NCBI GenBank assembly: GCA_019358935.1
Contig: JAHHIK010000134.1
Span: 1 to 19,695 of the forward strand
Length of the DNA: 19,695 nt
DNA from: Tolypothrix carrinoi HA7290-LM1
Lineage (GTDB): Bacteria > Cyanobacteriota > Cyanobacteriia > Cyanobacteriales > Nostocaceae
Direction: 5' to 3'
A program made the translations under genes and the position numbers. The number at the start of each line of letters is the position of its first letter. The stretch's first letter is position 1. A model generated the notes under the pieces. It saw only the letters and a list, made by a program, of their open reading frames with translations. It ran no database searches and was not told where the DNA came from. This document shows, piece by piece, positions 301 to 19,003 of this stretch.

Positions 301-392
301 TTTGTAGTAAGGACTGAAGTCCTTGTCTTGCTAAATGAGTACTAAAGTCCTCACTACGAACTTATCGCTTGTTATATAACCCGACATGATAT
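301..392. repeat. GTAG-type REP-like inverted doublet (304-357) plus an orphan MITE-type end (377-392)
   Basis: GTAGTAAGGACTGAAGTCCTT faces the reverse complement GTAGTGAGGACTTTAGTACTC. The reverse complement of 377-392 (ATATCATGTCGGGTTA) matches the TIRs at 2775 and 2904. Confidence 0.65.
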
Positions 393-422
393 GAATCGCT
401 TTTTTATGGTTTTTCTTACCCA

Positions 423-1166: not shown

Positions 1167-1330
1167 GAATCACTTTCCTTAAGGTAATTAGCCTAACCGC
1201 GAAGAGTGTACTTTCATCCATCCTAATGTCTTGAAAGGTGTTTTTGCCGGGACAAGCAACCGGGATTGTAAACCCGCTCAGAAATGCGTGAAGTCAAGAG
1301 TGTAATGGCGAGAATGAAGAAGGAGGTTCA

Positions 1331-1507
1331 ATGGAGCCAACACAGGCACAGTTAAAAGCACTTTATCAAAGATGCGTAAGAGCAAGTAACTTGCTTCAAG
1401 CAATCAACTTAGTAAGGCTTGATAGTCGCACTAATCGAATAGTCATGTTAGTTGGCGAGACAATACAGATAGAAATACTTGAGAATGGAGAGGTACTAAT
1501 CGAGTGA
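1331..1507 (+). CDS. 58-aa protein, DUF6888-like (MEPTQAQLKALYQRCVRASNLLQAINLVRLDSRTNRIVMLVGETIQIEILENGEVLIE); not in the ORF track
   Basis: AGGAGG RBS at 1321-1326, ATG at 1331, TGA at 1505-1507 overlapping the next start (GTGA). Confidence 0.75.
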   Translation: MEPTQAQLKALYQRCVRASNLLQAINLVRLDSRTNRIVMLVGETIQIEILENGEVLIE

Positions 1508-1686
1508 ATAATTATGAGTCGATGACTGAAAAGGAGCTGCGCGAATACGTAAGATGCAATCCTCAAGATGAAGATGCTTTTCAGTACTATCTAAGCATTA
1601 TTCGCTCTCGTCCTGGTGTGCTTTGCACAACAGATGAAGAAGCGGATGCAGAAATGCAAAGACGAGTTAATCAGCAAGTGGAGTAA
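1504..1686 (+). CDS. 60-aa acidic protein, DUF6887-like
   Basis: GTG start coupled to the upstream stop. M-T-x-x-E-L-R-x-Y-V ... D-x-x-A-F pattern. A terminator follows. Confidence 0.7.
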   Translation: MNNYESMTEKELREYVRCNPQDEDAFQYYLSIIRSRPGVLCTTDEEADAEMQRRVNQQVE

Positions 1687-1706
1687 CAGTCAATTCAAAA
1701 CCTTGA

Positions 1707-1742
1707 AAAAGCGTCGTGCTGCAAACACGACGCTTTTATTTT
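1707..1742 (+). terminator. Intrinsic terminator, possibly bidirectional
   Basis: Perfect 12-bp stem AAAAGCGTCGTG / CACGACGCTTTT, 7-nt loop, T-rich tail. Confidence 0.8.
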
Positions 1743-1853
1743 GTCGGTATTTCCTAGAAAGGATTTCCCAGAACAGCGATCACATGATTGATAGTCAGGC
1801 GATCGCTCTTTTGATTGCTTGAATTAAATCTAGCAAATAGTCAATATAGATCC

Positions 1854-1956
1854 AAGGAGTAAAGGCTCCGCTTCGGAGCATCGCGCAAATTATCAGCGAC
1901 ATTGGCGCTGAAATTGCAGCCTTAGAAAAAAGCACGATAAATACAAAGCCATCAAA
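1854..1956 (+). pseudogene. hsdS: Fossil fragment of the C-terminal conserved helix of a type I R-M specificity subunit (HsdS)
   Basis: From 1880 it reads IAQIISDIGAEIAALEK, then KHDKYKAIK after a 1-nt shift in the A-run. This matches the HsdS pattern EQKAIAQILSDMDAEIEALEKKRDKYKAIK. Upstream is AAG GAG TAA (K-E-stop) and a palindromic insert. Confidence 0.65.
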
Positions 1957-2446
1957 ACCTTGAGTTCATAACTGCTTTTACCTGTTCTGTGACTGAATTG
2001 GGAATGTCCACGGTGTAAGCTCGCAGTAAGTCTCTTTGAAAATCAATATCGCTATTATTTTGTGCCTGACACAAAAAACTGTAGACTTTGTGTCCTAGAG
2101 TTCCTCGTTTTATTTGCTCTATAGGAGCATTGTCATACTGTTCATTAAAAATAATCCGGTTTTGTCGGTTGAGGGATACTATCCCTACTGTTTGTGATGT
2201 GCCTGAATCACAATCTGTAATTTGTTGATAAGCAGATAGCACAGTACCATTACTGTCGGGACGTGACAAGCGTATTCTGGTACGATATCCAACTATGGAA
2301 TCAAATCGTTCAACTGAACTTAAATCAATATCAAAACTTTTTCCGTCTTTAGAATTGGCAATCTTTACCCAATTGGTAGACTGAGCGTGTGCTGGCAGCA
2401 CAAAAGACAATGCCAGCATAGTTCCCAACGTAAGCTTTCTAAACAT
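1952..2446 (-). CDS. Secreted hypothetical protein, surface-adhesin-E-like
   Basis: Signal peptide ending in AHA, a W-V-x-I ... F-D-I-D-x-x-S-V pattern, and two Cys (DC and LC). Confidence 0.6.
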   Translation of the reverse strand: MFRKLTLGTMLALSFVLPAHAQSTNWVKIANSKDGKSFDIDLSSVERFDSIVGYRTRIRLSRPDSNGTVLSAYQQITDCDSGTSQTVGIVSLNRQNRIIFNEQYDNAPIEQIKRGTLGHKVYSFLCQAQNNSDIDFQRDLLRAYTVDIPNSVTEQVKAVMNSRF

Positions 2447-2656
2447 ATCTAATTAATAAAATGTTTTTTATTTAATCTAGTGTTGTCATAGCCAGCCCAA
2501 TCTAACTCAACTTTGTAAACAGCGGTTTCCGAAGCAATACTGTTTTTTAAACAAGCTTTCCTAAAGTTTTGGAGTAACTTCACGTATGTACTTTTATTTC
2601 CGTAGTTACAGTTTACACAATATTTAGTAAGCGTTCTAACGCTTTATTAGGCACTA

Positions 2657-2773
2657 ATACCGTTTCTATATGAAGATGCGTCTAATTAGCCCACGCAGGT
2701 GGGCTTTGTACGCGCAACGCCCCAGGCTTCCAGCCTGAGGGTAAATAAAGTGCAACTCACATAGAATTGGTAT
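2657..2773. mobile_element. MITE-like element A
   Basis: Imperfect TIRs: ATACCGTTTCTATATGA versus ATACCAATTCTATGTGA (14/17). Internal hairpins AGCCCAC-GCAG-GTGGGCT and CAGGCT-TCC-AGCCTG. Confidence 0.7.
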
Positions 2774-2774
2774 A

Positions 2775-2904
2775 ATATCATGTTCGGCTAAAGACTTATC
2801 ATTAAGACCGCACTCTTGCAGGGGGCACTCTAGCAGGGGGAAAGAGGCTTTTGGTGATTTTTGCTATTATGCGGTAATTATAAGTGATTAACCGGACTTG
2901 GTAT
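2775..2904. mobile_element. MITE-like element B, abutting element A
   Basis: TIRs ATATCATGTTCGGCTAAAGACTTAT versus ATACCAAGTCCGGTTAATCACTTAT (19/25). Internal tandem GCACTCT(T/A)GCAGGGG x2. Confidence 0.7.
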
Positions 2905-2934
2905 AAGAGTGCCCAATATTATTAATGAGCGAGC

Positions 2935-3777
2935 CTAAGATATTTGAAACAGGAATGTTACCATGTCTCCTTTACCCAAGCTAATGCGATCGCCTGGTCG
3001 CAAGCGGTGTCGATTTCCTGGTAACAATGGCAAATTGTTAATGTAAGTGCCATTAGAACTGCCTACATCTTCGATATAGTGAGCGTCTCCCTCAACGCGA
3101 ATATCTGCATGAATCCGTGATACTATTTCAGAATTAGTAAATCCTGATACATCTATGTCCGGGGGAATGCGGTCGTTTTGTTTGCCGATATGAATCACGG
3201 AGAGACTTTGCGGCAATTCAATTTGTCTATCGCTTTGGACGTGAACTAACCGCGCTGTTACCTGTTGTAATTGGGTTCTGGCGACAGTTGCGGGTGCTGC
3301 GACCGGTTCTGGTGCGGGTGCGATCGGTTCGGGTGGTGCGACCGGTTCCGGCGCAGCTGTGATCGGTTCGGGTGGTGGTGCGACCGGTTCTGGTGGAGCG
3401 GCGATCGTTGGTGGTGCTGGTGGGGTGCTGCTTTCTGGGGGTGCTGCCACCGCTGTTGGTGGTAAAGGTGAGGGAGCAGGCTGAGAATTGGGAGTTGCGC
3501 CGACTCCTAAGGGATCTGGTCGTAAAAGTTCTAACAGTGGGTCAGGCGTAGCTGACGGCTGTACTTCCAAGGGTATTTCCGGCGCGACGGTTGGTGCAAC
3601 TGCTGCGGCTGCGCTTTGGTGCAGGTTATAACCGCACTGACCGCAGAAAGCTGCATCTGCTTGTACGGTTGCTCCACAGCTGGGACAGTTACTTGTCGTT
3701 GGTAACGGAGTGTAACAAGCTTCACATTGGACAGCGCCGTCCGGGTTGGGGTGATTGCAGTTAGGGCAGACGATCAT
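2935..3777 (-). CDS. fraH: FraH: double zinc-ribbon, Pro-rich linker and FHA domain
   Basis: Four CxxC motifs, a Pro/Ala-rich middle with PEP repeats, and FHA motifs (VSRIHA, GSSNGTYIN). Lies downstream of pgl, as recalled for Anabaena. Confidence 0.85.
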   Translation of the reverse strand: MIVCPNCNHPNPDGAVQCEACYTPLPTTSNCPSCGATVQADAAFCGQCGYNLHQSAAAAVAPTVAPEIPLEVQPSATPDPLLELLRPDPLGVGATPNSQPAPSPLPPTAVAAPPESSTPPAPPTIAAPPEPVAPPPEPITAAPEPVAPPEPIAPAPEPVAAPATVARTQLQQVTARLVHVQSDRQIELPQSLSVIHIGKQNDRIPPDIDVSGFTNSEIVSRIHADIRVEGDAHYIEDVGSSNGTYINNLPLLPGNRHRLRPGDRISLGKGDMVTFLFQIS

Positions 3778-3944
3778 CGATTTAAGCCTTTGTTCAAGAT
3801 CATCGTAAAATAATGCTGGTAAGCAGAGAAAAATCCGCTCTCAAGGAACAGGAAAAAAGCGATAGCTTTTGGTTTTACCAATTACTTACTGAAGGATGAA
3901 GTGTCAGCAAAATAGTATAAAACAACACGAATGTTATTTTATCA

Positions 3945-4107
3945 AGAATTCAGTTTTTCAAAAGCCAGAATGAGCGGATGAATTCTGTGCGAAGCTGCGA
4001 ATGAATGGGTTTAAGACCCCCGCTTATACAGGCAGTTTACATAATGTCAGTAGAAAACTCTACTTATATTACATTCTGAAGAACTGAATCCAGAAGAACT
4101 GAATTCT
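3945..4107. repeat. Dispersed inverted-terminus element (MITE-like)
   Basis: Termini AGAATTCAGTTTTTC versus reverse complement AGAATTCAGTTCTTC. Shares CAGAAT...AATTCTGTG and TTACATTCTGA with 11814-11974. Confidence 0.55.
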
Positions 4108-4117
4108 GTTTCATTCT

Positions 4118-4843
4118 TCATCCTTGTTTTAGTTCCTGCGCTGCTGCCACATCCAGCAGCCACCAAAGTTCTCCTTGGGGTTGAATTAAGCGAGATGGAT
4201 AAGTAAAATCCGAGGCATTGGGTGCGAAAACTTGAGCTAAAGCTGGGCGTTTATTAGCGCCAGCGACTACGAAGATAACGCAGCGAGCAGCATTGATGAA
4301 TGGGTATGTGAAGGTTATGCGCTGATTTGCGTCTTTGTTGCCCACAGTAATCAAGCGATCGCTTACTTTTAACGCTTCTGTATGCGGAAACAAAGATGCG
4401 GTATGTCCATCATCACCCATTCCTAGCAATATTACATCCAAGGAAGGAAATTCTCCAGGCGAAGCCCGAAAAAATTCTTGGCAAAGCTTTTCATACTTAG
4501 CTGCTGACACCGCTGGATCGCCATCGAGAGTCGGGGTGCTGTGAATATTCGTTGCTGGGATATCAACGCGATCTAGCCACGCACGACGCGCCATCAGTTC
4601 GTTGCTATCGGGATGATCTGATGGGACATAACGTTCATCTCCCCAAAAGACATGAATTTTATCCCATGTCAGCTTTTGATTAGCGATCGCTTCATACAAC
4701 GGCTTAGGTGTGCTACCGCCAGATAAAGCGATTGTAAACCGTCCCCGCTCTTGAATAGCAGTTTCCAGCTTAGATAAAATCAATTCAAGCGATCGCGCTA
4801 TTAGCGCTGCCTGATCCGATAAAACTTCAACTTTTTTGCTCAT
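4118..4843 (-). CDS. pgl: 6-phosphogluconolactonase (DevB type); likely start ATG 4843
   Basis: ALSGGSTP, FWGDERYVP, LGMGDDGHTASLFP and RITFT motifs. The ORF-track N-terminal extension is translated intergenic repeat. Confidence 0.95.
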   Translation of the reverse strand: MSKKVEVLSDQAALIARSLELILSKLETAIQERGRFTIALSGGSTPKPLYEAIANQKLTWDKIHVFWGDERYVPSDHPDSNELMARRAWLDRVDIPATNIHSTPTLDGDPAVSAAKYEKLCQEFFRASPGEFPSLDVILLGMGDDGHTASLFPHTEALKVSDRLITVGNKDANQRITFTYPFINAARCVIFVVAGANKRPALAQVFAPNASDFTYPSRLIQPQGELWWLLDVAAAQELKQG

Positions 4844-4932
4844 GACTTCATCCTCACGTTGCCGGCTTCTGTGCAATACAATAGCGAAATTTTGACAATC
4901 CTCCTTTTTACCTTTTGAAACTCTTAACATCA

Positions 4933-5076
4933 TGGGGAGTGGGGAGTGGGGAATGGGGAATGGGGGAGACAAGGGAGACAAGGGGGACAAGGGGGACAAG
5001 GGGGACAAGGGGGAATTTCTTCCCCAATGCCCAATTACCAATTACCAATTACCAATTACCAATTACCAATTCCCCA
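4933..5076. repeat. STRR array: GGGGAGT/GGGGAAT heptamers, GGGGACAAG nonamers, CCAATTA heptamers
   Basis: Directly visible tandem repeats that overlap the last codons of rph. Confidence 0.95.
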
Positions 5077-5806
5077 AAAACAAGCTAGGATCGGCGATCG
5101 CTTCTCGTTGCGCGATTAACAATTGCTGAATTCCTTTTTCGGCGAAATCTAGCAGCTGATTTAACTGGATGCGGCTAAAGCTGTTTTCTTCCGCAGTTCC
5201 CTGAATTTCGATTATCCCCATGTCTTGATTCATCACGACGTTGAAATCGACATCAGCGGCTACGTCTTCGAGGTAGTTTAGATCCAAAAATGGCTCTCCT
5301 TGCAATAACCCGACAGAAACTGCTGCTACTTGTTTTACCAAAGGCGATCGCTCTAACGTTCCTTGCTGCAATAATTTAGAAATCGCATGAGCTAACGCCA
5401 CAAACGAGCCTGTAATCGCTGTTGTTCTAGTTCCTGCGTCTGCTTGCAACACATCAGCATCTATAGTCAACGTTCGTTCTCCCAACACCTCCAAATCAAC
5501 CGCTGCCCTTAAGCTGCGTCCAATCAAACGTTGAATTTCTTGCGTTCGTCCAGACAATTTCATTAATTCCCGTTCTTGCCGTTGCTGCGTAGCTCCTGGC
5601 AGCATTCGATACTCCGCAGTCAGCCAACCTTTGCCAGTTCCTTTTAAAAACTTCGGCACTCCTTCAGTCACACTAACTGTACAAAGTACCTGAGTCTCAC
5701 CGCATTTTGTCAGCACCGAACCGGGTGCAAAGCCAGTGAAACCGGCATCAAAGCTGATGGGACGGAGTTGGTAAGGTTGCCGACCGTCTGGACGCTGCCA
5801 AGCCAT
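5063..5806 (-). CDS. rph: Ribonuclease PH
   Basis: [43 protein letters not shown] and EIQGTAE motifs. Confidence 0.97.
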
Positions 5807-5865
5807 TTAAGTTGCCTCAGAACTTTTATATAGAATACTGTAGACCTGCCTTGAAAATGGGATCG

Positions 5866-6063
5866 GGGGGAATGGGGAATGGGTAATGGGTAATGGGTAA
5901 TGGGTAATGGGGAATGGGTAATGGGTAATAGAAAGAAAGAATTGTCCCCCTGTCCCCCTGTCTCCTTGTCTCCTTGTCTCCTTGTCTCCCTTGTCTGCCT
6001 TGTCTCCTTGTCTCCCTTGTCTCCCTTGTCCCCCCACTCCCCCACTCCCCCCACTCCCCCACT
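5866..6063. repeat. STRR array: GGGTAAT/GGGGAAT heptamers, TGTCTCCT 8/9-mers, CCCCACT(C) units
   Basis: Directly visible tandem repeats. Confidence 0.95.
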
Positions 6064-6068
6064 TTCCT

Positions 6069-6623
6069 CTAAGAAACTGACACAAGAGTGAGAATATTTT
6101 GCTCTACAATTTCTGGTAATTGGTCGCCGTTGATAGTTAATAGGCGACGACGGCGATCGTAATATTCTAAGATGTTCATAGTGCGATCGTAGAATAACTC
6201 AACGCGGCGCTGAACGATTTCGGGTTGGTCATCCGGAAGCGATCGCCCATTAGAGCGAGTAACCATAACCGCTTCTGGTACTTGTAAATAAATTGCCCAA
6301 TCTAACTTTTGCTGTAAATCGTCCAATAAAAAATCCAATTCTTCAGCTTGGAAAGCTGTACGGGGATAACCTTCTAACACCCAACCACTGTTGATATCAT
6401 TTTTGTTCAGCCAAGTCCGGATAAACTCGATCGTCGTTTCATCTGGGACTAACTCACCTTTTTCCAGATATGGCTGCACATGGCGACCATTACTGCTAAA
6501 ATTTGCGATCGCCTGAGAGAAAATTTCGCCTGTGGAAATCAACGGAATATCAAAGTGTCTGCAAAGCCTTTGCGCTTGAGTGCTTTTTCCCGAACCTGAA
6601 CCTCCCAAAATCACAAATCTCAC
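6069..6623 (-). CDS. Adenylate-kinase-family NMP kinase (short LID, paralogue)
   Basis: P-loop GGSGSGKST, ISTGE, GELVPD, EGYPRT and DD motifs. GTG start. Confidence 0.85.
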   Translation of the reverse strand: MRFVILGGSGSGKSTQAQRLCRHFDIPLISTGEIFSQAIANFSSNGRHVQPYLEKGELVPDETTIEFIRTWLNKNDINSGWVLEGYPRTAFQAEELDFLLDDLQQKLDWAIYLQVPEAVMVTRSNGRSLPDDQPEIVQRRVELFYDRTMNILEYYDRRRRLLTINGDQLPEIVEQNILTLVSVS

Positions 6624-6970
6624 AAATACTCACTCCTCATATTGTCAAATTAATAACCAACAATAATCTGTTTTGCCCAAACAAACAGGCAATATAACAT
6701 TTAGTAATTTTCAGCTATAGTTATAGCTTTTTTAATTGCTCTAAACTTGACGATACGTGTTCTCATTTTGACAATTAATGAACTGACAACAAGCAATAAT
6801 ATAAATCTTAACTAGTCTTGACTTTAGCGCAAACGTAGTGATTGACTATAAATCGAGTTGGCAAATACACCACACTTTATTAAAAATAGCTTGATTTTAA
6901 TAGCAGATTTGCCAGAAAAAACCGAGCGCAAAAGCGCTAAAATTATTTGTCTTTTATTTAACATCACATC

Positions 6971-7507
6971 ATGGTTGCCCAGTTAGAATCCAAAAACGTA
7001 AATTCGACCCTTAACTTACCATATTCAGTTGAAGGACTAGTACAAGTTTTCACTAGCTCGTATCGTAACTTTTTTACTAGCGTTATGGCTCAAGCACTGA
7101 GAATTGCCGGTCAAGGCACACCAGTGTTAGTAGTGCAATTCCTCAAAGGTGGTATTAATCAAGGACACCAGCACCCCATACAGTTGGGACAAAACTTAGA
7201 TTGGATTCGCTGTGATTTGCCGCGTTGTATCGATACACCACATTTAGAAGAGACTGAAATCCAATCATTACAAGATTTGTGGCAACATACACAAAAAGTC
7301 GTTTTTGAAGGTAAATATTCTCTCGTAGTCTTAGATGAGTTAAGTTTGGCGATTAACTTTAACTTAATTCCGGAAATTGAAGTTTTAGCCTTTCTGACAA
7401 AACGCCCTGCCAATGTCGATATCATTCTCACAGGACCAGAGATGCCAAAATCTCTTCTAGATGTAGCAGATCAAATCACAGAGATTCGTCGCAGTCATCG
7501 ACCATAA
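6971..7507 (+). CDS. CobA/CobO/BtuR-like (corrinoid adenosyltransferase fold) protein with a degenerate P-loop
   Basis: GLVQVFT, VVQFLKGG, LVVLDE, IILTG and ADQITEI motifs are present. The expected TGxGKGKTT is replaced by TSSYRNFFT. Confidence 0.8.
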   Translation: MVAQLESKNVNSTLNLPYSVEGLVQVFTSSYRNFFTSVMAQALRIAGQGTPVLVVQFLKGGINQGHQHPIQLGQNLDWIRCDLPRCIDTPHLEETEIQSLQDLWQHTQKVVFEGKYSLVVLDELSLAINFNLIPEIEVLAFLTKRPANVDIILTGPEMPKSLLDVADQITEIRRSHRP

Positions 7508-7565
7508 AACAGTTAGCCCAGTTCACGGTATGCTAGTAAATCGATTTGAAGAGTGCTGTGAACTT

Positions 7566-8165
7566 GTGATTAAGAACGATCTCTGGATTACTGAAATGGC
7601 TCAAAAGGGTATGATTTCGCCTTTTGAGCCAAGCTTAATCCGAAAAATAGAAAAAGACCCATCGTCGGGGTTGCAACCTGTTATCAGCTACGGTCTTTCT
7701 TCCTATGGCTACGATATACGCTTATCAAGCGCTGAATTTCGCATTTTTCGCCACATTCCCGGAACTGTAGTTGATCCCAAAAACTTTAATCCTCAGAATC
7801 TGGAACCCACACCATTACATACAGATGCTGATGGTAGTTACTTTATCTTACCTGCTCATTCTTACGGTCTTGGCGTTGCTCTAGAAAAGCTAGAGGTTCC
7901 AAATAATATTACAGTAATTTGCATCGGTAAAAGTACGTATGCGCGTTGCGGTATAATTGCAAATTTAACACCTGCGGAGGCAGCATGGCGGGGTCATTTA
8001 ACTTTAGAATTTTCCAATTCTTCCAGCGCTGATTGTCGCATCTACGCTAACGAAGGCGTGGTGCAGTTATTATTTTTAGAAGGTGAACCCTGCGCTATTA
8101 GTTACGAAGCTCGCCAAGGTAAATATCAGGATCAGCCAGAGTTTGTGACCCTGGCTAAGGTATAA
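7566..8165 (+). CDS. dcd: dCTP deaminase; likely start GTG 7566
   Basis: ISYGLSSYGYD, GKSTYARCG, TPAE, WRGHLTLEFSN and KYQDQ motifs. Confidence 0.95.
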   Translation: MIKNDLWITEMAQKGMISPFEPSLIRKIEKDPSSGLQPVISYGLSSYGYDIRLSSAEFRIFRHIPGTVVDPKNFNPQNLEPTPLHTDADGSYFILPAHSYGLGVALEKLEVPNNITVICIGKSTYARCGIIANLTPAEAAWRGHLTLEFSNSSSADCRIYANEGVVQLLFLEGEPCAISYEARQGKYQDQPEFVTLAKV

Positions 8166-8211
8166 GTTTTAATGTAAAGTCAAAAGCTAAAACTCAATTA
8201 ATTTTTACATT

Positions 8212-9750
8212 TTAAGCTTTTAGTTTTACTTTTCCTAATGGCTTATCTTGCTCATACATCCAATCTTGTTCCATTGACAAAGCAAGTTCTGCTTTTTGCA
8301 ATTCCGTCCCCAAATACATGGCGTGTTCAACAAGCATTCCAGGACAATCTGCTGCTATTTGCCGAGAAATAGAGAAAGCAGATTTGCCTGAATAGCAGTT
8401 AACTACTTCTCCAGAACCGGGAGTCATGTGTTCCACCATAATGCTGCCATCCTGCACATTAATCACAAAACTACCCGCAGGATCGCTGTAATCTCTAGCT
8501 CTACAAATTTTGGCATAATGGGATTTAATTACATTATCTGCATTTTCCCAACAATCATCATAAATATGGGCACTTTGACTAATAGTAATTAATGGTCCCA
8601 TCTTCAATTTATGTTTAGACCTTTGAGTAATAGTATCATAAATATGTCGCTGTAGAGCTAATAATCCCATTGCATTTGCGGGCCATGCAGAAAACATATC
8701 ATTACTGCGAAAAGTCGCCGTTAAAGATAGTTCATTATCAACTATTCTTACCCAAATATGATTAAGGCAAGGCGGACTATTGTGAGCATCTTTTTCCACG
8801 TCCCATAGAGACATTACTGCCCTAGCTGAATCAATATCAGCTATTAGTTTCTCAATTACTTGCTCAATTTGATCGTGTCCAAAGTGGAAACGTAAACGTT
8901 GAGCGTATGTATATTTGACTCCTTCAAGTTTTAGCGAATCATCTAAACCTGAAATTTGGGAAATATATTGTTGAATAAAACTACGGTCAATTGGCAAATA
9001 ATTAGGTTCGGGAAAATAAAAATCATCAGGTGGTTCATCAGTAACAATAGCCATTACATTTATTAATTCTTGCCATTGCCCATCATACGCACTAGGTCTA
9101 ATTGTCCCTGTTGTTTTAATTCTATGAATAATTTTTACCCAAGTTTCAGCTATTGTTTTACCTTGTATTCTGTGTCCGTAACGTTCCCCAGGCACAATAG
9201 TAGGCAAAGCATTAGGCATTTCAAAATCTTTATAAGGTAAACCCCAAGGTTCTAAAAATTGTTTTTGAGTATAATTTTTGACAAGATTAACTGCATTTGC
9301 AATACAATCTGCTTCATCACATTTTACAGATTGCCGTAATTTTTCTAAGGCACTTTCTTCAACTTCAATATCAATATATCCAGGAATTTTAGAATTAATT
9401 TTCCAGCAAATACGCCCTGTTTCACATACGTCTTGTGAAAAGCCTTTTTTGAAAAAGTCCAGCAAGCACTCTCCAGCACCTGCGTTTTTGTCTTCTTTAG
9501 TAGCGTTAAGGACAACCAGATATCGTACATGTGGGTTAGCCAGAAGATTCCGTACTAATATGTTTATCCCTCTTGTGGGCGAGTATAGCTGTCCGATAAC
9601 AGCATACTCGCTACTGTGCAGGTGTTTAGCGATCGCCTCCTTCACTGTCCATCCTGTAATCACTGCTGTCTGACCTAGACCATAAATCAGCTGTTTGGGC
9701 TTGTACAGTGCTTTGTATTGATATTGGGTTGCCTTACCCGTTTGTGTCAT
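8212..9750 (-). CDS. Thymidylate synthase (ThyA fold, archaeal-like) with an N-terminal MtrA-like domain and a C-terminal DUF4346-like domain
   Basis: TS core: YTYAQRL, SARA, PPCL (catalytic Cys), FRSND, WPAN, SAHIY. N-terminal GINILVRNLLANPHVRYLVV resembles MtrA GIEKxxxNxxSNPNIRFL. C-terminal DPAGSF...EHAMYLGTELQKAE...YEQD resembles DUF4346. Confidence 0.85.
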   Translation of the reverse strand: MTQTGKATQYQYKALYKPKQLIYGLGQTAVITGWTVKEAIAKHLHSSEYAVIGQLYSPTRGINILVRNLLANPHVRYLVVLNATKEDKNAGAGECLLDFFKKGFSQDVCETGRICWKINSKIPGYIDIEVEESALEKLRQSVKCDEADCIANAVNLVKNYTQKQFLEPWGLPYKDFEMPNALPTIVPGERYGHRIQGKTIAETWVKIIHRIKTTGTIRPSAYDGQWQELINVMAIVTDEPPDDFYFPEPNYLPIDRSFIQQYISQISGLDDSLKLEGVKYTYAQRLRFHFGHDQIEQVIEKLIADIDSARAVMSLWDVEKDAHNSPPCLNHIWVRIVDNELSLTATFRSNDMFSAWPANAMGLLALQRHIYDTITQRSKHKLKMGPLITISQSAHIYDDCWENADNVIKSHYAKICRARDYSDPAGSFVINVQDGSIMVEHMTPGSGEVVNCYSGKSAFSISRQIAADCPGMLVEHAMYLGTELQKAELALSMEQDWMYEQDKPLGKVKLKA

Positions 9751-9888
9751 CGTTGGCTAAAAGTAAAACAACAACAAAGCTTCTCATTATAGCACTAAAT
9801 CAAAATTGATGCTAATTTGGCAGAAAGTTTGCTATGGAATTCTACCTGACATCCAGCCAATATCTCTATAAACGCGATCATTATTTAC

Positions 9889-9919
9889 TTTACAAAAATT
9901 AATAATATTATTAATTTTT
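9889..9919. promoter_or_regulatory. Perfect 26-bp AT palindrome overlapping a possible HLR1 (RpaB) direct repeat
   Basis: AAAAATTAATAAT|ATTATTAATTTTT at 9894-9919. TTTACAAA-aa-TTAATAAT at 9889-9906 matches KTTACAWW-N2-KTTACAWW with 2 mismatches. Lies upstream of the hli remnant. Confidence 0.35.
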
Positions 9920-9950
9920 TTACACAAAAAAGAAAACAGAGGAAAATCCA

Positions 9951-10044
9951 ATGCGTATAAACGGTGGTATTGTTGACGATCAAGGTCTAATGAACAAATG
10001 AAGCTCATCTACGCAATCATGTTTATGTAGATGAGCAAGGCGAT
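9951..10044 (+). pseudogene. 5' remnant of a high-light-inducible (Hli/CAB-ELIP) gene
   Basis: GAGGA RBS, then MRINGGIVDDQGLMNK-stop, then VYVDEQGD out of frame. This resembles the Nostocales Hli N-terminus (..DDQGxxNNFAIEPKVYVDEQGDR..). The ExxNGRxAM helix is not found downstream. Confidence 0.6.
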
Positions 10045-10099
10045 GTCCGGTGACAAGCCCTTCCCTACGGGACGCTGCGCGAACGCGCTTCGCAGTCGC
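10040..10099. repeat. Small dispersed repeat(s) inserted in a split HIP1 site
   Basis: GCGA(T) ... TCGC flank about 50 nt of GC-rich hairpin sequence (including TCCC-TAC-GGGA) within AT-rich DNA. Confidence 0.55.
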
Positions 10100-10197
10100 C
10101 TAGAGTTGCGTTTAATTATTTAGGGAACATTTAATGGTATTGTTTGAAAATAACTGATAGTCAAAGCAGTTTTTCAGATAAAGGCATCAAATAATTT

Positions 10198-10785
10198 ATG
10201 GCTTTAACTGCTTCAACCATGTTGCCGCTAGGCACTCAAGCCCCAGATTTTCATCTACCGGATGTGGTATCTGGCAAATCAATATCGCTTGCGACCTTTG
10301 CAGATAAAAAAGCGCTGTTAGTAATGTTTATTTGTCAACATTGCCCATTTGTCAAGCATGTAAAAGCAGAATTGGCGCAGTTGGGAAAAGATTACATTCC
10401 CAGTGATTTGGCAATTGTGGCAATTAGCGCCAACGATATTAATAAATATCCAGCTGATGCACCTGAGTTTCTCAAAGAAATGGCAACAGAACTTAAGTTG
10501 AATTTTCCCTTATGTTATGACGAAACTCAGTCAACTGCAAAAGCATATACAGCAGCTTGCACACCTGATTTCTTTATATTTGATGCAGAGCGAAAACTCG
10601 TATATCGAGGACAATTAGATGATAGCCGTCCAAGTAATGATAAACCCGTAACAGGTACAGATTTACGCGCAGCAATTGAAGCTGTTTTAGCAGGTAAATC
10701 AGTTGCAACTGAGCAAAAGCCGAGTATCGGTTGCAATATTAAATGGAAACCTGGTAACGAACCGAATTATTTTGAGAATGGGTAA
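10198..10785 (+). CDS. Thioredoxin-fold AhpC/TSA (peroxiredoxin-like) protein
   Basis: APDFHLPD, CQHCPFV (CxxC), CTPDFF, YRGQLDD and SIGCNIKW motifs. Confidence 0.9.
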   Translation: MALTASTMLPLGTQAPDFHLPDVVSGKSISLATFADKKALLVMFICQHCPFVKHVKAELAQLGKDYIPSDLAIVAISANDINKYPADAPEFLKEMATELKLNFPLCYDETQSTAKAYTAACTPDFFIFDAERKLVYRGQLDDSRPSNDKPVTGTDLRAAIEAVLAGKSVATEQKPSIGCNIKWKPGNEPNYFENG

Positions 10786-11025
10786 TTGGGCAATCGGCAA
10801 TGGGCAATGGGCAATGGGCAATGGGAATTGGGAATTGGGAATGCGTTTTTTACCATTACCCATGCCCCATGACGGCAGATGCTACAACGGAGGGAACCTC
10901 CGCAACGCACTGCCTCCCCCATGCCCCATGCCCCCTTCGGGTTCGCCAGTCGCCTGCGGAGGGAAACCCTCCCGCAGCGCTGGACTCACCATTACCCATT
11001 ACCTATTACCCATTACCCATTACCA
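10774..11025. repeat. STRR array (GGGCAAT, GGGAATT, CCCCATG, CCCATTA) with two embedded structured dispersed elements (10871-10915, 10933-10990)
   Basis: Visible tandem heptamers interrupted by GC-rich nested stem-loops. Confidence 0.9.
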
Positions 11026-11028
11026 ACA

Positions 11029-11541
11029 TCAATGCTTAATTTCCAAATTGAGGATATAGCATCCTAGTTGGATTTTATCTGCCCACAATTCGTATTCTAC
11101 CCGCAAATGTTCTGGCAAAGGGTGTCCGGTGAGAGTCAGGCGGCGAGTAAAATTGCGTAAGCGAATGGGTTCGTGAGGATGCAATGACTCTGTAGGCAAC
11201 CAATAACGAGTAATACCATAAACTCCCTGTTCCCAGAAGTGACGGTAACTCAATTGAGCGTTACCTTGCATAGTCATAATTACTCGGTAAGGTGAAATTT
11301 CCATCCATAAGATCCTGGGACTGCTGGGAGGATAAGCTTTGCGCTGTCCTGGGTGAGGGGTATCTTCTGGACTTGGGGGAGTTGTTACTTCGCAACTAAT
11401 TAAGGGCGGTGCAGTCAATAATAAATGGAACCGGTCACTATCTTTTTGATACAATGTCCCGGCTGTTTCAACAACAGACCAAACAGGGAGGTCTGTAGAA
11501 ATGAGTGATAAGCACACGGGCTTGCGGTGATGGGTGAGCAT
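11029..11541 (-). CDS. Hypothetical protein, probably conserved in cyanobacteria
   Basis: 170-aa ORF with an ATG start and globular composition. No motif recognised. Confidence 0.7.
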   Translation of the reverse strand: MLTHHRKPVCLSLISTDLPVWSVVETAGTLYQKDSDRFHLLLTAPPLISCEVTTPPSPEDTPHPGQRKAYPPSSPRILWMEISPYRVIMTMQGNAQLSYRHFWEQGVYGITRYWLPTESLHPHEPIRLRNFTRRLTLTGHPLPEHLRVEYELWADKIQLGCYILNLEIKH

Positions 11542-11813
11542 GGGAGCGTAATGGGGACTTCAGCTATTGAACAAAAAGAAATCAATACTAGGCGTAGCTT
11601 CTTCAGGGTAAGCAACTTAATAAAACATGCTTAATATTAACTGAATCTGCTGATTTGGGATTGAGACAAATCAGGATAAAAACAGCTAGAATTTCAATTT
11701 AAAAAGCAAAAATCAGGCTTTTAGGCGCGAAAGCTCCTACGGAAGCTTTGCTTGTAAAGACTTTCAGGTAATAGCCATTAAAAGTCAGGATAAGCAAAGA
11801 AAGCAAAGGCGCG

Positions 11814-11974
11814 GAGTTACGAGTCAAAAGTCAGAATTTGTGAATTAAATTCTGTGGTAAACTGCGCGGACTGTATAAACGGCGTTTTTGCACTCCTGCG
11901 TTTCTTCAGACGGTCTTCACCAGAGGTAGCGGTGTAAAAAACTACCTAATTACATTCTGACTCCTGAATTCTTC
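11814..11974. repeat. Dispersed element with GAGTCAG-type inverted heptamer termini, related to 3945-4107
   Basis: GAGTCAAAAGTCAGAAT ... ATTCTGACTCCTGAATTC. Internal blocks are shared with the 3945 element. Confidence 0.5.
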
Positions 11975-12101
11975 TTGATTGGGATTTCAGTAAGTTTCAT
12001 ACAGCAGAAAGCGATACGATACTAAGAAGGAAGTAACCTGCGGCGGCATTAGCTTTGCCAAATTGTCAACTTCCGATGCAGTTAAAAGCCAGTTTATCCT
12101 A

Positions 12102-13451
12102 ATGTCGGCTTCAGTTATAACCGTAGAAACTAAAGAAAACGCTTCTCAAAACTTAATTATCCAGCGACCCCCTGTGGGTCTATCTTTACAGGGTCGCATC
12201 CGAGTACCGGGAGATAAATCTATTTCCCATCGTGCTCTGATGTTGGGGGCACTATCTCAAGGTGAAACCGAAATTCAAGGACTTCTTCTCGGAGAAGATC
12301 CCCGCAGTACTGCTAGCTGTTTTCAAGCTATGGGTGCAGAAATTTCGGAACTAAATACAGAATTAGTGCGGGTTAAGGGTATTGGTTTAGGAAGAGTGCG
12401 AGAACCAGTTGATGTGTTAAATGCCGGCAACTCTGGTACGACACTGCGATTGATGTTAGGAATTTTAGCTTCTCATCCGGGGGGCTTTTTTACTGTAACC
12501 GGTGATGATTCTTTGCGATCGCGTCCGATGTCTCGTGTTGTCAAACCTTTACAACAAATGGGGGCACAAATTTGGGGACGCAAAAATAATTCTTTAGCAC
12601 CTCTAGCAATTGCAGGAGTTGCTCTCAAACCAATTCACTATCAATCACCCATCGCTTCTGCCCAAGTTAAATCCTGCGTTCTTTTAGCGGGTTTGATGAC
12701 CGAGGGAGAAACTACTGTCACCGAACCAGCACTTTCTCGCGACCACAGCGAACGAATGTTAAAAGCGTTTGGTGCAAAACTGAGCGTTGACCCAGACACC
12801 AATAGCGTTACTGTTACCGGTCCTGCTCAACTGTATGGGCAAAAAGTAGTTGTACCTGGGGATATCAGTTCCGCTGCCTTTTGGTTGGTGGCTGGGGCTA
12901 TTGTACCCGATTCTAATTTGGTGGTGGAAAATGTCGGCGTTAATCCTACCCGCACAGGTATTTTAGAAGCTTTGGCGATGATGGGAGCCGATATCCAACT
13001 GGAAAATCAGCGCGAAGTTGCTGGGGAACCAGTAGCCGATTTACGAGTGCGTTCCAGCCGTCTCCAAAGCTGCACGATTGAAGGGGATCTCATACCCAGA
13101 TTGATTGATGAAATTCCAATTTTGGCAGTAGCGGCAGTATTTGCCGAGGGTACAACAGTAATTAAAGATGCAGAAGAGTTACGGGTAAAAGAAAGCGATC
13201 GCATTGCAGTAATGGCACAGCAACTCAATAAAATGGGTGCAAAAGTTACCGAATTACCCGATGGTATGGAAATACATGGTGGTACTTCTTTAGTGGGGAC
13301 TGATGTAGATAGCCATACAGATCATAGAATCGCCATGAGTTTAGCGATCGCCTCTTTAGTTGCTTCTGGTACCACCACCATTCAACGCGCAGAAGCAGCC
13401 GCCATTTCTTACCCTGACTTCACTGCTACCCTGCAACAAGTCTGTAGGTAA
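12102..13451 (+). CDS. aroA: 3-phosphoshikimate 1-carboxyvinyltransferase (EPSP synthase, class II); likely start ATG 12102
   Basis: [37 protein letters not shown] and DHRIAM motifs. Confidence 0.97.
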
Positions 13452-13645
13452 TGGGGAATGGGGAATGGAGAGACAAGGAGACAAGGAGACAAGGGGGACA
13501 AGGGAGATAAGGGGGAGCAGGGAGCAGGGAGCAGGGGGAAATATTTCTTCTTTCTTACCATGAGTCCCTTTCCCCTTTCCCCTTTCCCCCTCCTCAAATT
13601 GCCCATTGCCCAATGCCCAATGCCCTATTACCAATCACCAATTTT
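13449..13645. repeat. STRR array (GGGGAAT, GGAGACAA, GGAGCAG, CCCTTTC, CCCAATG)
   Basis: Visible tandem repeats immediately after the aroA stop. Confidence 0.9.
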
Positions 13646-13688
13646 CAAGGATAATTTTCTGTGTAAATAAAAAGGAGAACATTTAATT

Positions 13689-14030
13689 ATGGGTTGGTTA
13701 CAAAGACTTTTTGGTATGGAAAAACCGGATGATGCTCAAGTCAATCCGGAACCAGTTGCTGCTAATGATTCAGGGGAAGATATTCCACTAGAACGAGTGG
13801 GATTAAATGGAGAATATGACCAAAGTGGTTTAGCAAAACGAGTTGCGCTTGCTTTTGACGAAGACTCTCAGTTTGATGATATTGATTCGCTATACGTCGC
13901 TCAGACAGGAAGCACAGTTGTGTTAAAAGGGCAAGTCCCCAGTCAAGAAATTTTAGATGAAATGGTGGCGATCGCAAGCGGGGTTAGCGGTGCCACCGAT
14001 GTCAACACAGACGAAGTTACAGTTGGCTAG
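13689..14030 (+). CDS. BON-domain (phospholipid-binding) protein
   Basis: AGGAG RBS. BON-like pattern V-x-L-K-G-x-V ... A-x-x-V-x-G-x-x-x-V. Confidence 0.8.
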   Translation: MGWLQRLFGMEKPDDAQVNPEPVAANDSGEDIPLERVGLNGEYDQSGLAKRVALAFDEDSQFDDIDSLYVAQTGSTVVLKGQVPSQEILDEMVAIASGVSGATDVNTDEVTVG

Positions 14031-14044
14031 AATATTTTTCTGAC

Positions 14045-14428
14045 ATGAGCAATCTACTCAAACCTCGTCAATCTACTATCGGGCTTTTGTTGTTAGCCGT
14101 TTTAATGCTCACCAGCTGTGGTAAAAAAGCTGAAACACCCGATGCCGGCGCTACTGCGAGTCCTGGCACTACGACTGGAAGTTCAACTAACGATTCAGGT
14201 GAGTCAGGAAGTAATGCTTCTATTCCCGCTGAAGCAGCAAAGCTTGGGGTAAAACCTACAGACGCAACTACTTGTCCTAATAATGCACTTGTTAAGGGCA
14301 AGGTAACGAAGAAGCGAGGCAATATATACCACATTGCCAACTCGCTTGATTATGACAAAGTTAAGCCGGATATCTGCTTTAAAGATACAGTAACAGCAGA
14401 AAAAGCTGGCTTTCAAGCGCCTAAGTAA
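14045..14428 (+). CDS. Lipoprotein with a small C-terminal Ada-metal-binding-like (IYH...CF...AEKAGF) domain
   Basis: Lipobox LTSC, a low-complexity linker, and KG...IYH...Y...CF...AE-x-AGF. Confidence 0.7.
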   Translation: MSNLLKPRQSTIGLLLLAVLMLTSCGKKAETPDAGATASPGTTTGSSTNDSGESGSNASIPAEAAKLGVKPTDATTCPNNALVKGKVTKKRGNIYHIANSLDYDKVKPDICFKDTVTAEKAGFQAPK

Positions 14429-14430
14429 GT

Positions 14431-14646
14431 TGGGAATGGGGAATTGGTAATGGGGAATTGGTAATTGGGAATGGGTAATGGTGAGTCCAGCGCTGCGCTC
14501 CTGGTTTCCAAGAGTGCCGGCTCTGGCTCTCTTCATTGGGGTAATGGGGAATGGAAAGAATGTCTCATATAATCCTGCATAAATACTTACGGGATGCAAA
14601 ATAACCTTTTTCTCAATTACCAATTACCCATTATCCATTACCAATT
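14431..14646. repeat. STRR array with an embedded structured dispersed element (14480-14532)
   Basis: GGGAATG/GGTAATT heptamers, then CCAATTA. The insert shares GGTGAGTCCAGCGCTGCG with the reverse complement of 10973-10990. Confidence 0.85.
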
Positions 14647-14675
14647 TTCTTTCAAACTTTAACGGCAATGGCATT

Positions 14676-14885
14676 TTATACTACAGCTTCTGCTGGCAAT
14701 TTTACAGGCGAAATTGTTGTCGAAGGTCTAGGTTTGCGAGCAACTTGAGTAGATAAAGCTCGTGCCTTTTTAGACGAATACTCAAAATTTGGCATTTCTT
14801 GCCGACAATGGGAACAAAACCAGTAAACATTTGAGCAACGAATATGGCGTAGCAATTGGTGGGAGCAACAAGGACAACTATTCAT
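14676..14885 (-). CDS. Small zinc-ribbon-like protein (CPCC...WFCSHCRQEMP); likely start ATG 14885
   Basis: Two CxxC pairs. The LLRH and WFC-x-x-C-x-QEMP pattern is recalled from cyanobacterial small proteins. Confidence 0.7.
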   Translation of the reverse strand: MNSCPCCSHQLLRHIRCSNVYWFCSHCRQEMPNFEYSSKKARALSTQVARKPRPSTTISPVKLPAEAVV

Positions 14886-14942
14886 ATTTCGCTTCTGAGT
14901 TAAAAAGATGTTTGTCGGCACTTCTAATGTAATTGCCAGGGC

Positions 14943-14984
14943 GGGGATCGCTCATCTATCCTAGGGGATCGCTCATTCATCCTA
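14943..14984. repeat. 21-bp tandem direct repeat (2 copies, 19/21 identical)
   Basis: GGGGATCGCTCATCTATCCTA / GGGGATCGCTCATTCATCCTA. Confidence 0.85.
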
Positions 14985-15253
14985 AAGTTAGACTCACACG
15001 ATAAAAGCCTGGAAATGCGTAGAAAAGTTCATAAAAAGTGACAATTAAAAAGTTATTAGTCATGATTATCTAGAACTAACAAACAATAACTACAGCAAGT
15101 TTCTGCTAATTCTCAACTTATTTGAGTATATTTGCGAATTCATAAATTACATACTTTGATACTAAAAAAGCGGTTTCTTAACAATTATTAATATAAACCG
15201 GGTTTTTGATTGTAAGTGTAAAGGGGGAAGAGAAAATAAAGAGCGATCGCCTG

Positions 15254-15334
15254 ATATCATGTTCAGTAAATCGCGCATATTGTAGAGACGTTCCATTGTC
15301 ACGTCTCTACGATGGTTGCCGTATGACATGATAC
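15254..15334. mobile_element. Short MITE-like shell (TATCATGT...ACATGATA) containing a GTAG-REP-like hairpin (15282-15310)
   Basis: 8-bp inverted termini match element B. Internal GTAGAGACGT...ACGTCTCTAC has a perfect 10-bp stem. Confidence 0.6.
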
Positions 15335-15357
15335 GATTGGGAAAAAAAATATTAGTA

Positions 15358-16338
15358 TCATTTAGCAAACACACCCGTCAAGCGATCGCGGTTATGGGTT
15401 GCATCAAAATCAATTCTTGGTCCTTTTGGCACAATCTGAGTCGGGTTAACGTTGGGATGGCTGATATAATAATGCCGTTTGATGTGGTCAAGGTTGCAAG
15501 TTTCCTTAACTCCCGGCTGTTGGTAAAGGTCTTTGAGATAATTCCACAAATTGGGATAATCGACAATTCGCTGTAAGTTACATTTGAAGTGGACGTAGTA
15601 CACAGCATCGAAGCGAAACAAAGTAGTAAACATACACCAATCCGCTTCCGTGATTTGATCCCCGCACAGATAACGTTGCTTTCCTAAAATTTTTTCCCAG
15701 TAGTCAAGTTCTGTAAATAACTCCGTGACTGCTTCATCGTAAGCTGACTGAGAAGTGGCAAATCCTGCCCGATACACACCGTTATTGATTGGTTGGTAAA
15801 TTGCGTCAATTGTCTCGTCAATAACTTTTTGTAAAGCTTCCGGATAAAAGTTTACATTCTGTTTGGCAAAGGCATTAAATTCTGTATCGAACATCCGCAT
15901 AATTTCACGGGACTCATTATTGACAATCGTGCCAGTTTGTGCATTCCATAAAACTGGGACTGTCACTCGTCCACTGTAATTTGAGTCAGCTTTGAGATAA
16001 ATTTGCCAAAGATAATTTGTCTTGTTGACTGTATCCGGAATGCTTCCTGGTTCATCTGAGAATTCCCAGCTGTTTTCGTGAATTTCCGCAGCAACCACCG
16101 ATAAGCCTATGGCATCTTCTAATCCTTTGAGCGATCGCATAATCGCGGTACGACAAGCCCAAGGACAAGCCCAAGAGATATAAAGATGATAGCGCCCAGA
16201 TTCAGCTTTAAACCCACTCGAACCATCGGCAGTAATTTTATTGCGGAAAGTGGTTGAGGGACGGACAAATTTACCATCTGAGTCTTCTTGTTCCCTTTGT
16301 GATATCCACTTACCATCTTTGAGGATTCCCAAACCCAT
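15358..16338 (-). CDS. Glutathionyl-hydroquinone reductase / omega-like GST (YqjG family); likely start ATG 16338
   Basis: RYHLY, CPWA, TVPVLW, IVNNES, INNGVYRAGFA, RFDAVY and HIKRHYY motifs. GGAG RBS upstream of MGLG. Confidence 0.93.
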   Translation of the reverse strand: MGLGILKDGKWISQREQEDSDGKFVRPSTTFRNKITADGSSGFKAESGRYHLYISWACPWACRTAIMRSLKGLEDAIGLSVVAAEIHENSWEFSDEPGSIPDTVNKTNYLWQIYLKADSNYSGRVTVPVLWNAQTGTIVNNESREIMRMFDTEFNAFAKQNVNFYPEALQKVIDETIDAIYQPINNGVYRAGFATSQSAYDEAVTELFTELDYWEKILGKQRYLCGDQITEADWCMFTTLFRFDAVYYVHFKCNLQRIVDYPNLWNYLKDLYQQPGVKETCNLDHIKRHYYISHPNVNPTQIVPKGPRIDFDATHNRDRLTGVFAK

Positions 16339-16352
16339 AAATTCTCTCCTTT

Positions 16353-16486
16353 GATAGTTGGAGCGTAGTTGGTGGTTAGTGGTTATTTGATAGTGGTTAG
16401 TGGTTAAGAGTAGTTTTCGGCAACGCTCTACCCAACACCCAACACCCAACAACTAACAAATAACACCCAACAACTAACACCTAACT
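16353..16486. repeat. STRR array (TAGTGGT, then CCAACAC/CTAACAA)
   Basis: Visible heptamer repeats between gatC and the GST gene. Confidence 0.85.
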
Positions 16487-16775
16487 ATTCAACATTCATA
16501 ATTTTTGGCACTTTAAAAAATTCGCCTTCCTGCTGTGGGGCACTGTTGAGAATAGCTTCTCTATCAGAATAGGGTTGCAATTTATCTTCTCGTGTGACGT
16601 TGCTGACATCAATAGCGCGTGTTGTTGGTGCAACATTGCTGACATCAAGTTCACCTAGCTGTTGAACATAATCGAGAATATTTCCTAACTGAGTGGTAAA
16701 TTGCTCCTCTTCTTCAGGTGTCAACTCTAAACGAGCGAGAAGGGCTACTTTATGAACTTGCTCACGGTCAATCAT
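16485..16775 (-). CDS. gatC: Asp-tRNA(Asn)/Glu-tRNA(Gln) amidotransferase subunit C
   Basis: [21 protein letters not shown] and FFKVPKI motifs. 96 aa. Confidence 0.95.
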
Positions 16776-16805
16776 ATTTTTTTTAACTCCTCACTCATAA
16801 CTTTT

Positions 16806-16834
16806 GTACAGACGTTCCAATGGAACGTCTCTAC
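16806..16834. repeat. GTAG-REP-like palindrome, second copy of 15282-15310
   Basis: GTACAGACGTTCCA-A-TGGAACGTCTCTAC. Confidence 0.8.
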
Positions 16835-16842
16835 CGCGCCTT

Positions 16843-17364: not shown

Positions 17365-17464
17365 ATAGTAACGAACGCTTTGGTTGCAGCTAATAAAGGA
17401 ATTGTAATTCTTTGATGCTTCTATCCCTCATTAGTTAATTTAACTGATTGCTGAGGTAATTCTT

Positions 17465-18991: not shown

Positions 18992-19003
18992 TCATTATCT
19001 CTC

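Follow-up and report, generated by a model that had tools for sequence, protein, structure and literature searches.

The window, that is, the whole 19,695 nt stretch of DNA analysed here (contig JAHHIK010000134.1, positions 1 to 19,695, of assembly GCA_019358935.1), comes from the genome of Tolypothrix carrinoi HA7290-LM1 (completeness 99.65%), and encodes a thymidylate synthase (TS) in which a short archaeal-type ThyA core is fused to an N-terminal domain with the fold of MtrA and a C-terminal DUF4346 domain. This 512 aa fusion protein is almost certainly the housekeeping enzyme by which the cell synthesises deoxythymidine monophosphate (dTMP) de novo. Two routes to dTMP have been described: ThyA, which is coupled to the dihydrofolate reductase (DHFR) FolA, and ThyX, which operates without FolA (PMC9931769). 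As a genome pattern, the fusion enzyme is likely uncoupled from FolA, and we propose, with a probability of about 0.5, that the module flanking the TS core makes FolA dispensable, the probable means being recycling of the pterin in place.

The gene and its domains have the following coordinates in the window.

8212..9750, minus strand: three-domain thymidylate synthase gene, 512 aa (Pfam, NCBIfam, AlphaFold2)
9238..9732, minus strand: MtrA-fold domain, residues 7-171 (structural match to 5LAA, and conservation)
9649..9651, minus strand: codon of Trp34, a candidate ring-stacking residue (125/125 homologues)
9469..9486, minus strand: NAGAGE loop, without His, aligned on GHxxGQ of MtrA (alignment)
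8515..9183, minus strand: short archaeal-type ThyA catalytic core, approximately residues 190-412 (TIGR03283 over 195-402; TS-fold Z 17-23)
8767..8769, minus strand: codon of the predicted catalytic Cys328 (123/125; aligns with the PPC of solved ThyA)
8245..8484, minus strand: DUF4346 (PterinBD), residues 423-502, with D423, G426, H476, E483 and Q501 (Pfam and conservation)
8323..8325, minus strand: codon of His476 in DUF4346 (124/125 fusion homologues; invariant in 99/99 domain sequences)

The TS core and the C-terminal domain matched their Pfam families over the gathering threshold: Thymidylat_synt (PF00303) at residues 291-410 (E 2.5e-14, 53.5 bits, threshold 24.3) and PterinBD-DUF4346 (PF14251) at residues 423-502 (E 9e-23, 81.3 bits, threshold 29.6). 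The match to MtrA (PF04208; residues 45-143, E 8e-4, 19.5 bits) was under the cut-off of 25. The top NCBIfam match was the methanogen-type TS TIGR03283 (residues 195-402), with a score of 132.2 bits that is under the equivalog cut-off of 174.55, as is the 150.7 bits reached by a Nanoarchaeia homologue. The AlphaFold2 model of the fusion protein, built from 134 sequences, had a predicted local distance difference test (pLDDT) score of 94.8 and a predicted template modelling (pTM) score of 0.92. Residues 7-171 of this model were matched by MtrA (5LAA), whose fold is of the Rossmann type, with Z 16.8 and a root-mean-square deviation of 2.5 over 149 aligned residues, the next unrelated chain having Z 7.2. 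Solved structures matched the TS core in the order 9IQC (Z 22.8), MilA (Z 20.6) and ThyA (Z 19.1), all in the TS-fold range of 17-23; the enzyme of 9IQC has the TS fold, and its structure was solved with flavin adenine dinucleotide (FAD). The initial annotation of this DNA had named the three domains as MtrA-like, ThyA and DUF4346-like, and Pfam, NCBIfam and the model uphold those assignments, including the structural similarity to MtrA on which the N-terminal call depended. When DUF4346 was folded alone, its best solved match had Z 6.2, in the range of chance folds; Foldseek returned no match at E ≤ 0.001, and an Atlas feature search for the domain no usable match. Complex prediction of DUF4346 against the N-terminal and TS part gave scores of 0.09 and 0.03 (mark 0.32) and was not used as evidence. 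The gene has a GC content of 37.8%, against 42.3% for the genome, and three pairwise comparisons gave raw pN/pS values of 0.20-0.41 for each of the three domains.

Conservation was assessed in 125 sequences, consisting of the fusion protein and 124 homologues of 440-540 aa from 150 listed representatives. The catalytic motifs PPC328, RSND348-351, WPAN359 and SAHIY393-397, previously noted as intact, are all present in the core, and C328, R348, S349, D351, N359, H395 and Y397 are each conserved in 120-124 of the 125 sequences (D351 in 120, N359 in 124). We take D351 to be the pterin-contact residue, as in ThyA, and Asn359 is presumably the residue that specifies deoxyuridine monophosphate (dUMP). 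Leu directly follows the catalytic Cys in 112/125 homologues (PPCL). Phosphate is bound in Escherichia coli ThyA by a set of four arginines, of which only R348 is conserved in the fusion family; at positions 309-310 each Arg is kept in 53/125 sequences and neither in 50/125, the fusion protein itself having A309/R310.

The fusion is the only PF00303 match in the source genome, which has no match to thyX (PF02511). A sample of 301 genomes of the phylum gave 56 matches, and after four that were weak or fragmentary (G005, G265, G291 and G052) had been dropped there remained 52 full-length carriers, all of them in the source organism's own order. The thyX gene is present in 247 of the 301 genomes. 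Among the 136 genomes of the class, 51 had only the fusion, 83 only thyX, one both and one neither, related genomes not being independent in these counts. The phyletic profile, therefore, is one in which the fusion excludes thyX, and the two genes also exchange places. In three genomes (G032, G095 and G163) thyX lies in the slot of the fusion and on the same strand, between dcd and an AhpC gene; in G041 the thyX locus shares the AhpC side of the slot only. These flanks are located in the window as follows.

7530..8165, plus strand: dcd (deoxycytidine triphosphate deaminase), a convergent neighbour supplying deoxyuridine triphosphate and dUMP, left flank of the slot (TIGR02274 over cut-off, synteny)
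10198..10785, plus strand: AhpC/TSA thioredoxin-like gene, right flank of the slot (Pfam, synteny)

In G005 (G005:C134:3057-4045), the fusion is reduced to a 5′ remnant of 40 codons, followed by thyX and then by dut and a deoxycytidine monophosphate (dCMP) deaminase gene; because thyX stands directly behind the remnant, it can be seen to have replaced the fusion in place. Genes for dcd, dut, dCMP deaminase or tmk were found at most 1.5 kb away in 23 of 30 fusion loci, and G068 has the gene run tmk-DUF29-fusion-dcd-dut-dCMP deaminase. As the fusion is the sole TS of the source genome and shows both mutual exclusion and slot exchange with thyX, a role in dTMP supply is almost certain.

The fusion is not confined to cyanobacteria. 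Searches yielded 1439 protein matches among 8000 candidates, many of them labelled ‘thymidylate synthase’ and from Nostocales and other cyanobacteria, and 125 stretches in IMG/VR encode a relative, 80 of which were kept as the viral locus set. All three domains stand in a single open reading frame (ORF) in 75 of these 80; the viral contigs L046 and L108 have the gene in two ORFs, by sequencing error or decay. Among 153 matches, no cultured phage record covered 80% of the fusion protein. Ribonucleotide reductases, dCMP deaminase and nucleotide kinases were among the neighbours in the 17 viral loci scanned (150 of 160 ORFs). Non-cyanobacterial hosts, by record title, were Kerfeldbacteria, Paceibacterota, Parcubacteria, Saccharibacteria, Pacearchaeota, Woesearchaeota, Aenigmarchaeota and Micrarchaeota, and 33 of 35 loci from candidate phyla radiation (CPR) bacteria and DPANN archaea have all three domains, the other two being interrupted at contig ends. 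A Saccharibacteria metagenome-assembled genome (MAG; G362, locus L200) has a canonical thyA and the fusion approximately 1.3 kb apart.

The structural matches of the core, with 9IQC and MilA ahead of ThyA, and the Leu behind the catalytic Cys could suggest a pyrimidine-modifying, hydroxymethylase-like enzyme in place of a dTMP synthase. However, dCMP and CMP hydroxymethylases carry Asp where ThyA has its dUMP-specifying Asn, and the fusion family has the dUMP-type Asn359, if its role is as we take it to be. A base-modifying enzyme also fits poorly with the exclusion of thyX, the in-place exchange and the lack of another TS in the source genome, and a TET-associated glycosyltransferase was found in just 1/17 viral loci scanned. 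We therefore regard base modification as highly improbable.

Uncoupling from FolA is clearest in the Paceibacteria, the class of the chosen centre G334. PF00303 searches of 141 MAGs of this class found 55 with a match; with the sub-cut-off G451 dropped, there were 36 with canonical thyA, 12 with the fusion (including G334 itself and the contig-cut G499) and 6 with short TS-only proteins. DHFR was found over cut-off in 34/36 canonical-thyA genomes versus 1/12 fusion genomes. The glyA gene, mostly unlinked to thyA, was present in 34/34 of the canonical-thyA genomes searched (of the 36), so that loss of an unlinked gene is unusual in these MAGs, versus 8/12 fusion genomes of the Paceibacteria. 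Among 35 CPR and DPANN carriers, true folA was found in two, a weak folA match in two, a RibD_C-family match in five and thyX in five; folA or a RibD_C-family match was present in 7/35, and neither in 28/35. In the cyanobacteria, with true folA defined by E below 1e-30, the gene was found in 9/52 carriers versus 7/249 other genomes of the phylum, and the folA search of the source genome gave a weak RibD_C-type match only. Carriers do not always encode folA or thyX, as 43/52 cyanobacterial carriers have neither. DHFR was found in 0/30 viral records with the fusion, a weak test that had no control. In its genomic behaviour the fusion is thus like ThyX and not like ThyA, which supports independence from FolA. 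The initial annotation had inferred that the route might be DHFR-independent, and support for this comes from the CPR comparison (1/12 versus 34/36), whilst the cyanobacterial pattern proves little, for a reason given below.

The N-terminal domain is part of the module that might replace FolA. In MtrA the lower-ligand pair is His84 and Glu54, and the pocket for the nucleotide tail includes Gly57, Val61 and Asn64 (PMC4915002). We mapped these positions onto the fusion by sequence, through a His-bearing relative, and not by coordinates. The equivalent of the cobalt ligand His84 falls on the NAGAGE loop, so the earlier caveat that GHxxGQ aligns there was right: any His in loop 83-93 occurs in just 12/125 homologues, and His at columns 89-91 in at most 3 of 125. 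The Glu54 equivalent is lost too, with Glu at position 58 in 0/125. The nucleotide-tail pocket is retained (G61 in 123/125, L65 in 95/125 and N68 in 120/125), and the invariant W34 is not an MtrA residue.

These features, together with the established chemistry of ThyA, are consistent with the following model. Cys328 would add to C6 of dUMP, and the methylene carried on the pterin would be moved to C5. The MtrA-fold and DUF4346 module is the most likely cause of the uncoupling from FolA, and its parts are assigned more cautiously: the dihydropterin may be bound by DUF4346, with His476, and a small ring cofactor by the MtrA domain, which has lost its His, in the retained nucleotide-tail pocket. 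That cofactor could return or supply a reducing equivalent in place, restoring the reduced pterin, and no load of free dihydrofolate would then arise, so that an enzyme with the ThyA fold would achieve a result like that of ThyX. Our best guess for the ring cofactor is a flavin, because the dimethylbenzimidazole tail, which derives from flavin mononucleotide, also resembles it, and because 9IQC was solved with FAD.

Several observations weigh against recycling in place. Structure and Foldseek comparison of the two extra domains revealed neither a known reductase fold nor a known cofactor motif. Either folA or an intact stand-alone RibD_C reductase, a plausible host reductase, is present in all 52 cyanobacterial carriers; it is for this reason that the cyanobacterial folA pattern proves little, and we rejected the argument that absence of folA in cyanobacteria proves independence. 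Within the class, folA was somewhat more frequent in carriers (9/52) than in thyX-only genomes (4/83), as expected if dihydrofolate is released. The short TS-only group of the Paceibacteria also had no DHFR over cut-off (0/6), so the absence of folA is not peculiar to the three-domain form, and in G362, which has a canonical thyA, neither folA nor glyA was found. Incompleteness of the CPR and DPANN MAGs also counts here, as does the position of canonical folA, which is mostly next to thyA, so that the two tend to be recovered together in canonical MAGs. Lastly, glyA was found in 22/46 CPR and DPANN carriers and not in 24/46, which recycling in place does not explain.

The enzyme may instead follow ordinary ThyA chemistry and release dihydrofolate, to be recycled by a host reductase other than FolA, the extra domains being structural or regulatory. 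They might, for example, replace the folate lid and the phosphate arginines, the lack of any Arg at 309-310 in 50/125 homologues being a deficit that another domain might make good, or they might bind a nucleotide effector. In cyanobacteria the reductase would be RibD_C, and the genomes agree with this: the stand-alone RibD_C protein (G000:C17:19420-20064; L121:4343-5095) matches in 76 of 80 genomes (51 carriers and 29 others), is absent or broken in 6/12 folA-positive versus 1/68 folA-negative genomes, and in four of those six folA-positive genomes has left remnants with stop codons at the orthologous position. Weak DHFR activity has been described for a protein of the RibD_C family, and it sufficed when ThyA was absent (PMC4879365), a circumstance that argues against the same role beside an active ThyA-type enzyme. 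In CPR and DPANN hosts release of dihydrofolate would call for an unrecognised enzyme or reduced folate supplied by the host, since 28/35 of these carriers have neither folA nor a RibD_C-family gene, and a regular-expression scan of the source genome, a weak test, found no FolM-type TGx3RxG motif. We consider release of dihydrofolate possible, though we lean against it.

The same data make the stand-alone RibD_C protein a strong candidate for the cyanobacterial DHFR. For Prochlorococcus, among other organisms, the DHFR has been described as unidentified, and some DHFR is needed by cyanobacteria for de novo folate synthesis, whichever TS they use (PMC1971073). A stand-alone DUF4346 protein (G000:C17:22295-22612; L113:1438-1818; P0280), present in 136/136 genomes of the class and 0/165 other genomes of the phylum, and also in green algal and Euglena-type records, was considered for this role and is not favoured: it is retained in all folA-positive genomes of the class, and it is RibD_C that decays instead. 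The gene stands behind RibD_C in 4/20 loci (as RibD_C-GNAT-DUF4346), three of which are also behind PTPS, and at three loci from small genomes RibD_C itself follows a PTPS gene. DUF4346 is also found at the C-terminus of archaeal proteins that resemble dihydropteroate synthase (DHPS; TIGR00284). Being joined to DHPS-like proteins and placed behind RibD_C and PTPS, the domain recurs with pterin enzymes. The source genome has one FolP, with 85 in-frame residues ahead of its motif in a regular-expression scan.

The missing glyA genes would be best explained by direct methylation that depends on a cobamide, in which C5 of the Cys328-dUMP adduct would receive a methyl group without need of either DHFR or methylene-tetrahydrofolate, the MtrA domain binding a cobamide without a His of its own or DUF4346 providing His476 as ligand. 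The MtrA fold and nucleotide-tail pocket are retained, and glyA is found in 22/46 carriers versus 34/34 canonical-thyA genomes. Five larger glyA-negative carriers (G340, G355, G363, G409 and G398) have an intact fusion, and FolD, MTHFR, GcvT and thymidine kinase were each found over cut-off in 0/5 of them, which may reflect incompleteness; in one group of nine fusion proteins, eight hosts are glyA-negative (support values not shown). However, the fusion has no methyl-donor domain, MTHFR was found in none of the five carriers, D351 is kept, and in G450 the gene immediately after the fusion is glyA. The initial annotation had named a corrinoid-linked route among its possibilities, and this is weakened because the equivalents of both His84 and Glu54 are lost; we judge it unlikely.

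The cobalt ligands persist in proteins with the MtrA and DUF4346 domains and no TS (NF002128-like; 3320 matches, not all full-length), whose 120 close relatives retain both the cobalt His and the Glu (120/120) and have a Cys-rich N-terminus. These proteins sometimes adjoin or are fused with S-adenosylmethionine methyltransferases, which, with their intact ligands, is a point in favour of the cobamide-dependent route. Their neighbours at 50 loci of at least 5 kb include ArsR (36), DsbD/CcdA (31), thioredoxin (29) and a small multidrug resistance (SMR) transporter (22) and, less often, MerC, MerR and metal ATPases (L262-L341, metagenomic; P0307), and they are possibly corrinoid-dependent enzymes of metal or metalloid detoxification. 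It appears that the TS was inserted into this two-domain unit.

Two further genes of the window accompany the slot.

6971..7507, plus strand: CobA/CobO-like P-loop protein (PRK07414; Pfam, NCBIfam, synteny)
11029-11541, minus strand: 170 aa ORF without a Pfam or NCBIfam match, which adjoins the AhpC gene in relatives too

The CobO-like neighbour was considered as a sign of B12 use and ruled out as such; it flanks thyX loci as well, and is therefore uninformative on B12 and a further point against cobamide dependence. In G267, of the same genus, the flanks (L021) are 95-100% identical to the window, and the fusion copy in the slot is just 65% identical and is followed by a dCMP deaminase gene, with no dcd match; the slot has undergone a recent replacement by a distant fusion copy. 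Promoter-like sites in the window were not above chance (9 versus 7.1 ± 2.8), and Rfam gave no match within it. Short intergenic tandem repeats, typical of heterocystous cyanobacteria, occur as GGGGACAAG- and CCCATTA-type runs at 4932-5129, 5807-6091, 10703-11067, 13356-13670 and 14204-14623, and give several spurious ORFs.

Of the 136 genomes sampled in the class, 52 are served by the fusion, bloom-forming genera among them, and it also occurs in phages, CPR bacteria and DPANN archaea. Its database name is merely ‘thymidylate synthase’, yet the coupling of ThyA to FolA is likely broken in its carriers. As well as a candidate for the cyanobacterial DHFR, our analysis yields a first handle on DUF4346, a domain present in every sampled genome of the class. 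We suggest tentatively that the fusion represents a third mechanistic class of TS, with the ThyA fold, its own cofactor in the MtrA-derived and DUF4346 domains and no net release of dihydrofolate, some of its CPR and DPANN hosts having no recognisable source of methylene-tetrahydrofolate. If true, this class and thyX replace one another in the same slot across the cyanobacteria, whose phages carry it as well. Our literature search, which left subscription journals and supplements uncovered, found no paper on a TS-MtrA fusion or on DUF4346, PF14251 or PterinBD. In the available text of PMC9931769 the words ‘MtrA’ and ‘fusion’ do not occur; that of PMC5954106, a survey in which 8 of 31 cyanobacteria had ThyA and 23 ThyX, does not comment on architecture. 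The biochemistry of methanogen ThyA is described as little known (PMC9012536).

Compared with known systems, the fusion is a member of PF00303, and is neither TIGR03283 by score nor a cobalamin-binding MtrA by ligand. With the methanogen-type ThyA of TIGR03283 it shares a core of approximately 220 aa, PPCL, RSND, Asn359 and SAHIY; unlike that family, it has two added domains, scores below the cut-off and occurs in cyanobacteria, phages, CPR and DPANN. Canonical ThyA has the same fold (Z 17-19) and catalytic residues, but differs in the company of DHFR (34/36 versus 1/12 for the fusion) and in the arginines at 309-310, each kept in only 53/125 fusion homologues. The MtrA-fold domain has the fold of MtrA (PF04208; 5LAA) and equivalents of Gly57, Val61 and Asn64, but has lost His84 and Glu54, gained the invariant Trp34 and falls under the Pfam cut-off. 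NF002128-like and TIGR00284 proteins share with the fusion the DUF4346 motifs DPxG, HAxYLGxE and YxQD; the former differ in their kept cobalt His and Glu, Cys-rich N-terminus and ArsR, DsbD and thioredoxin operons, and the latter in having a pterin-binding barrel instead of TS. ThyX (PF02511) uses the same genomic slot, is mutually exclusive with the fusion and is likewise usually found without folA, whereas the two enzymes have no homology, the fold of the fusion being that of ThyA. The fusion would be ThyA-like at its active site and ThyX-like in its gene partners.

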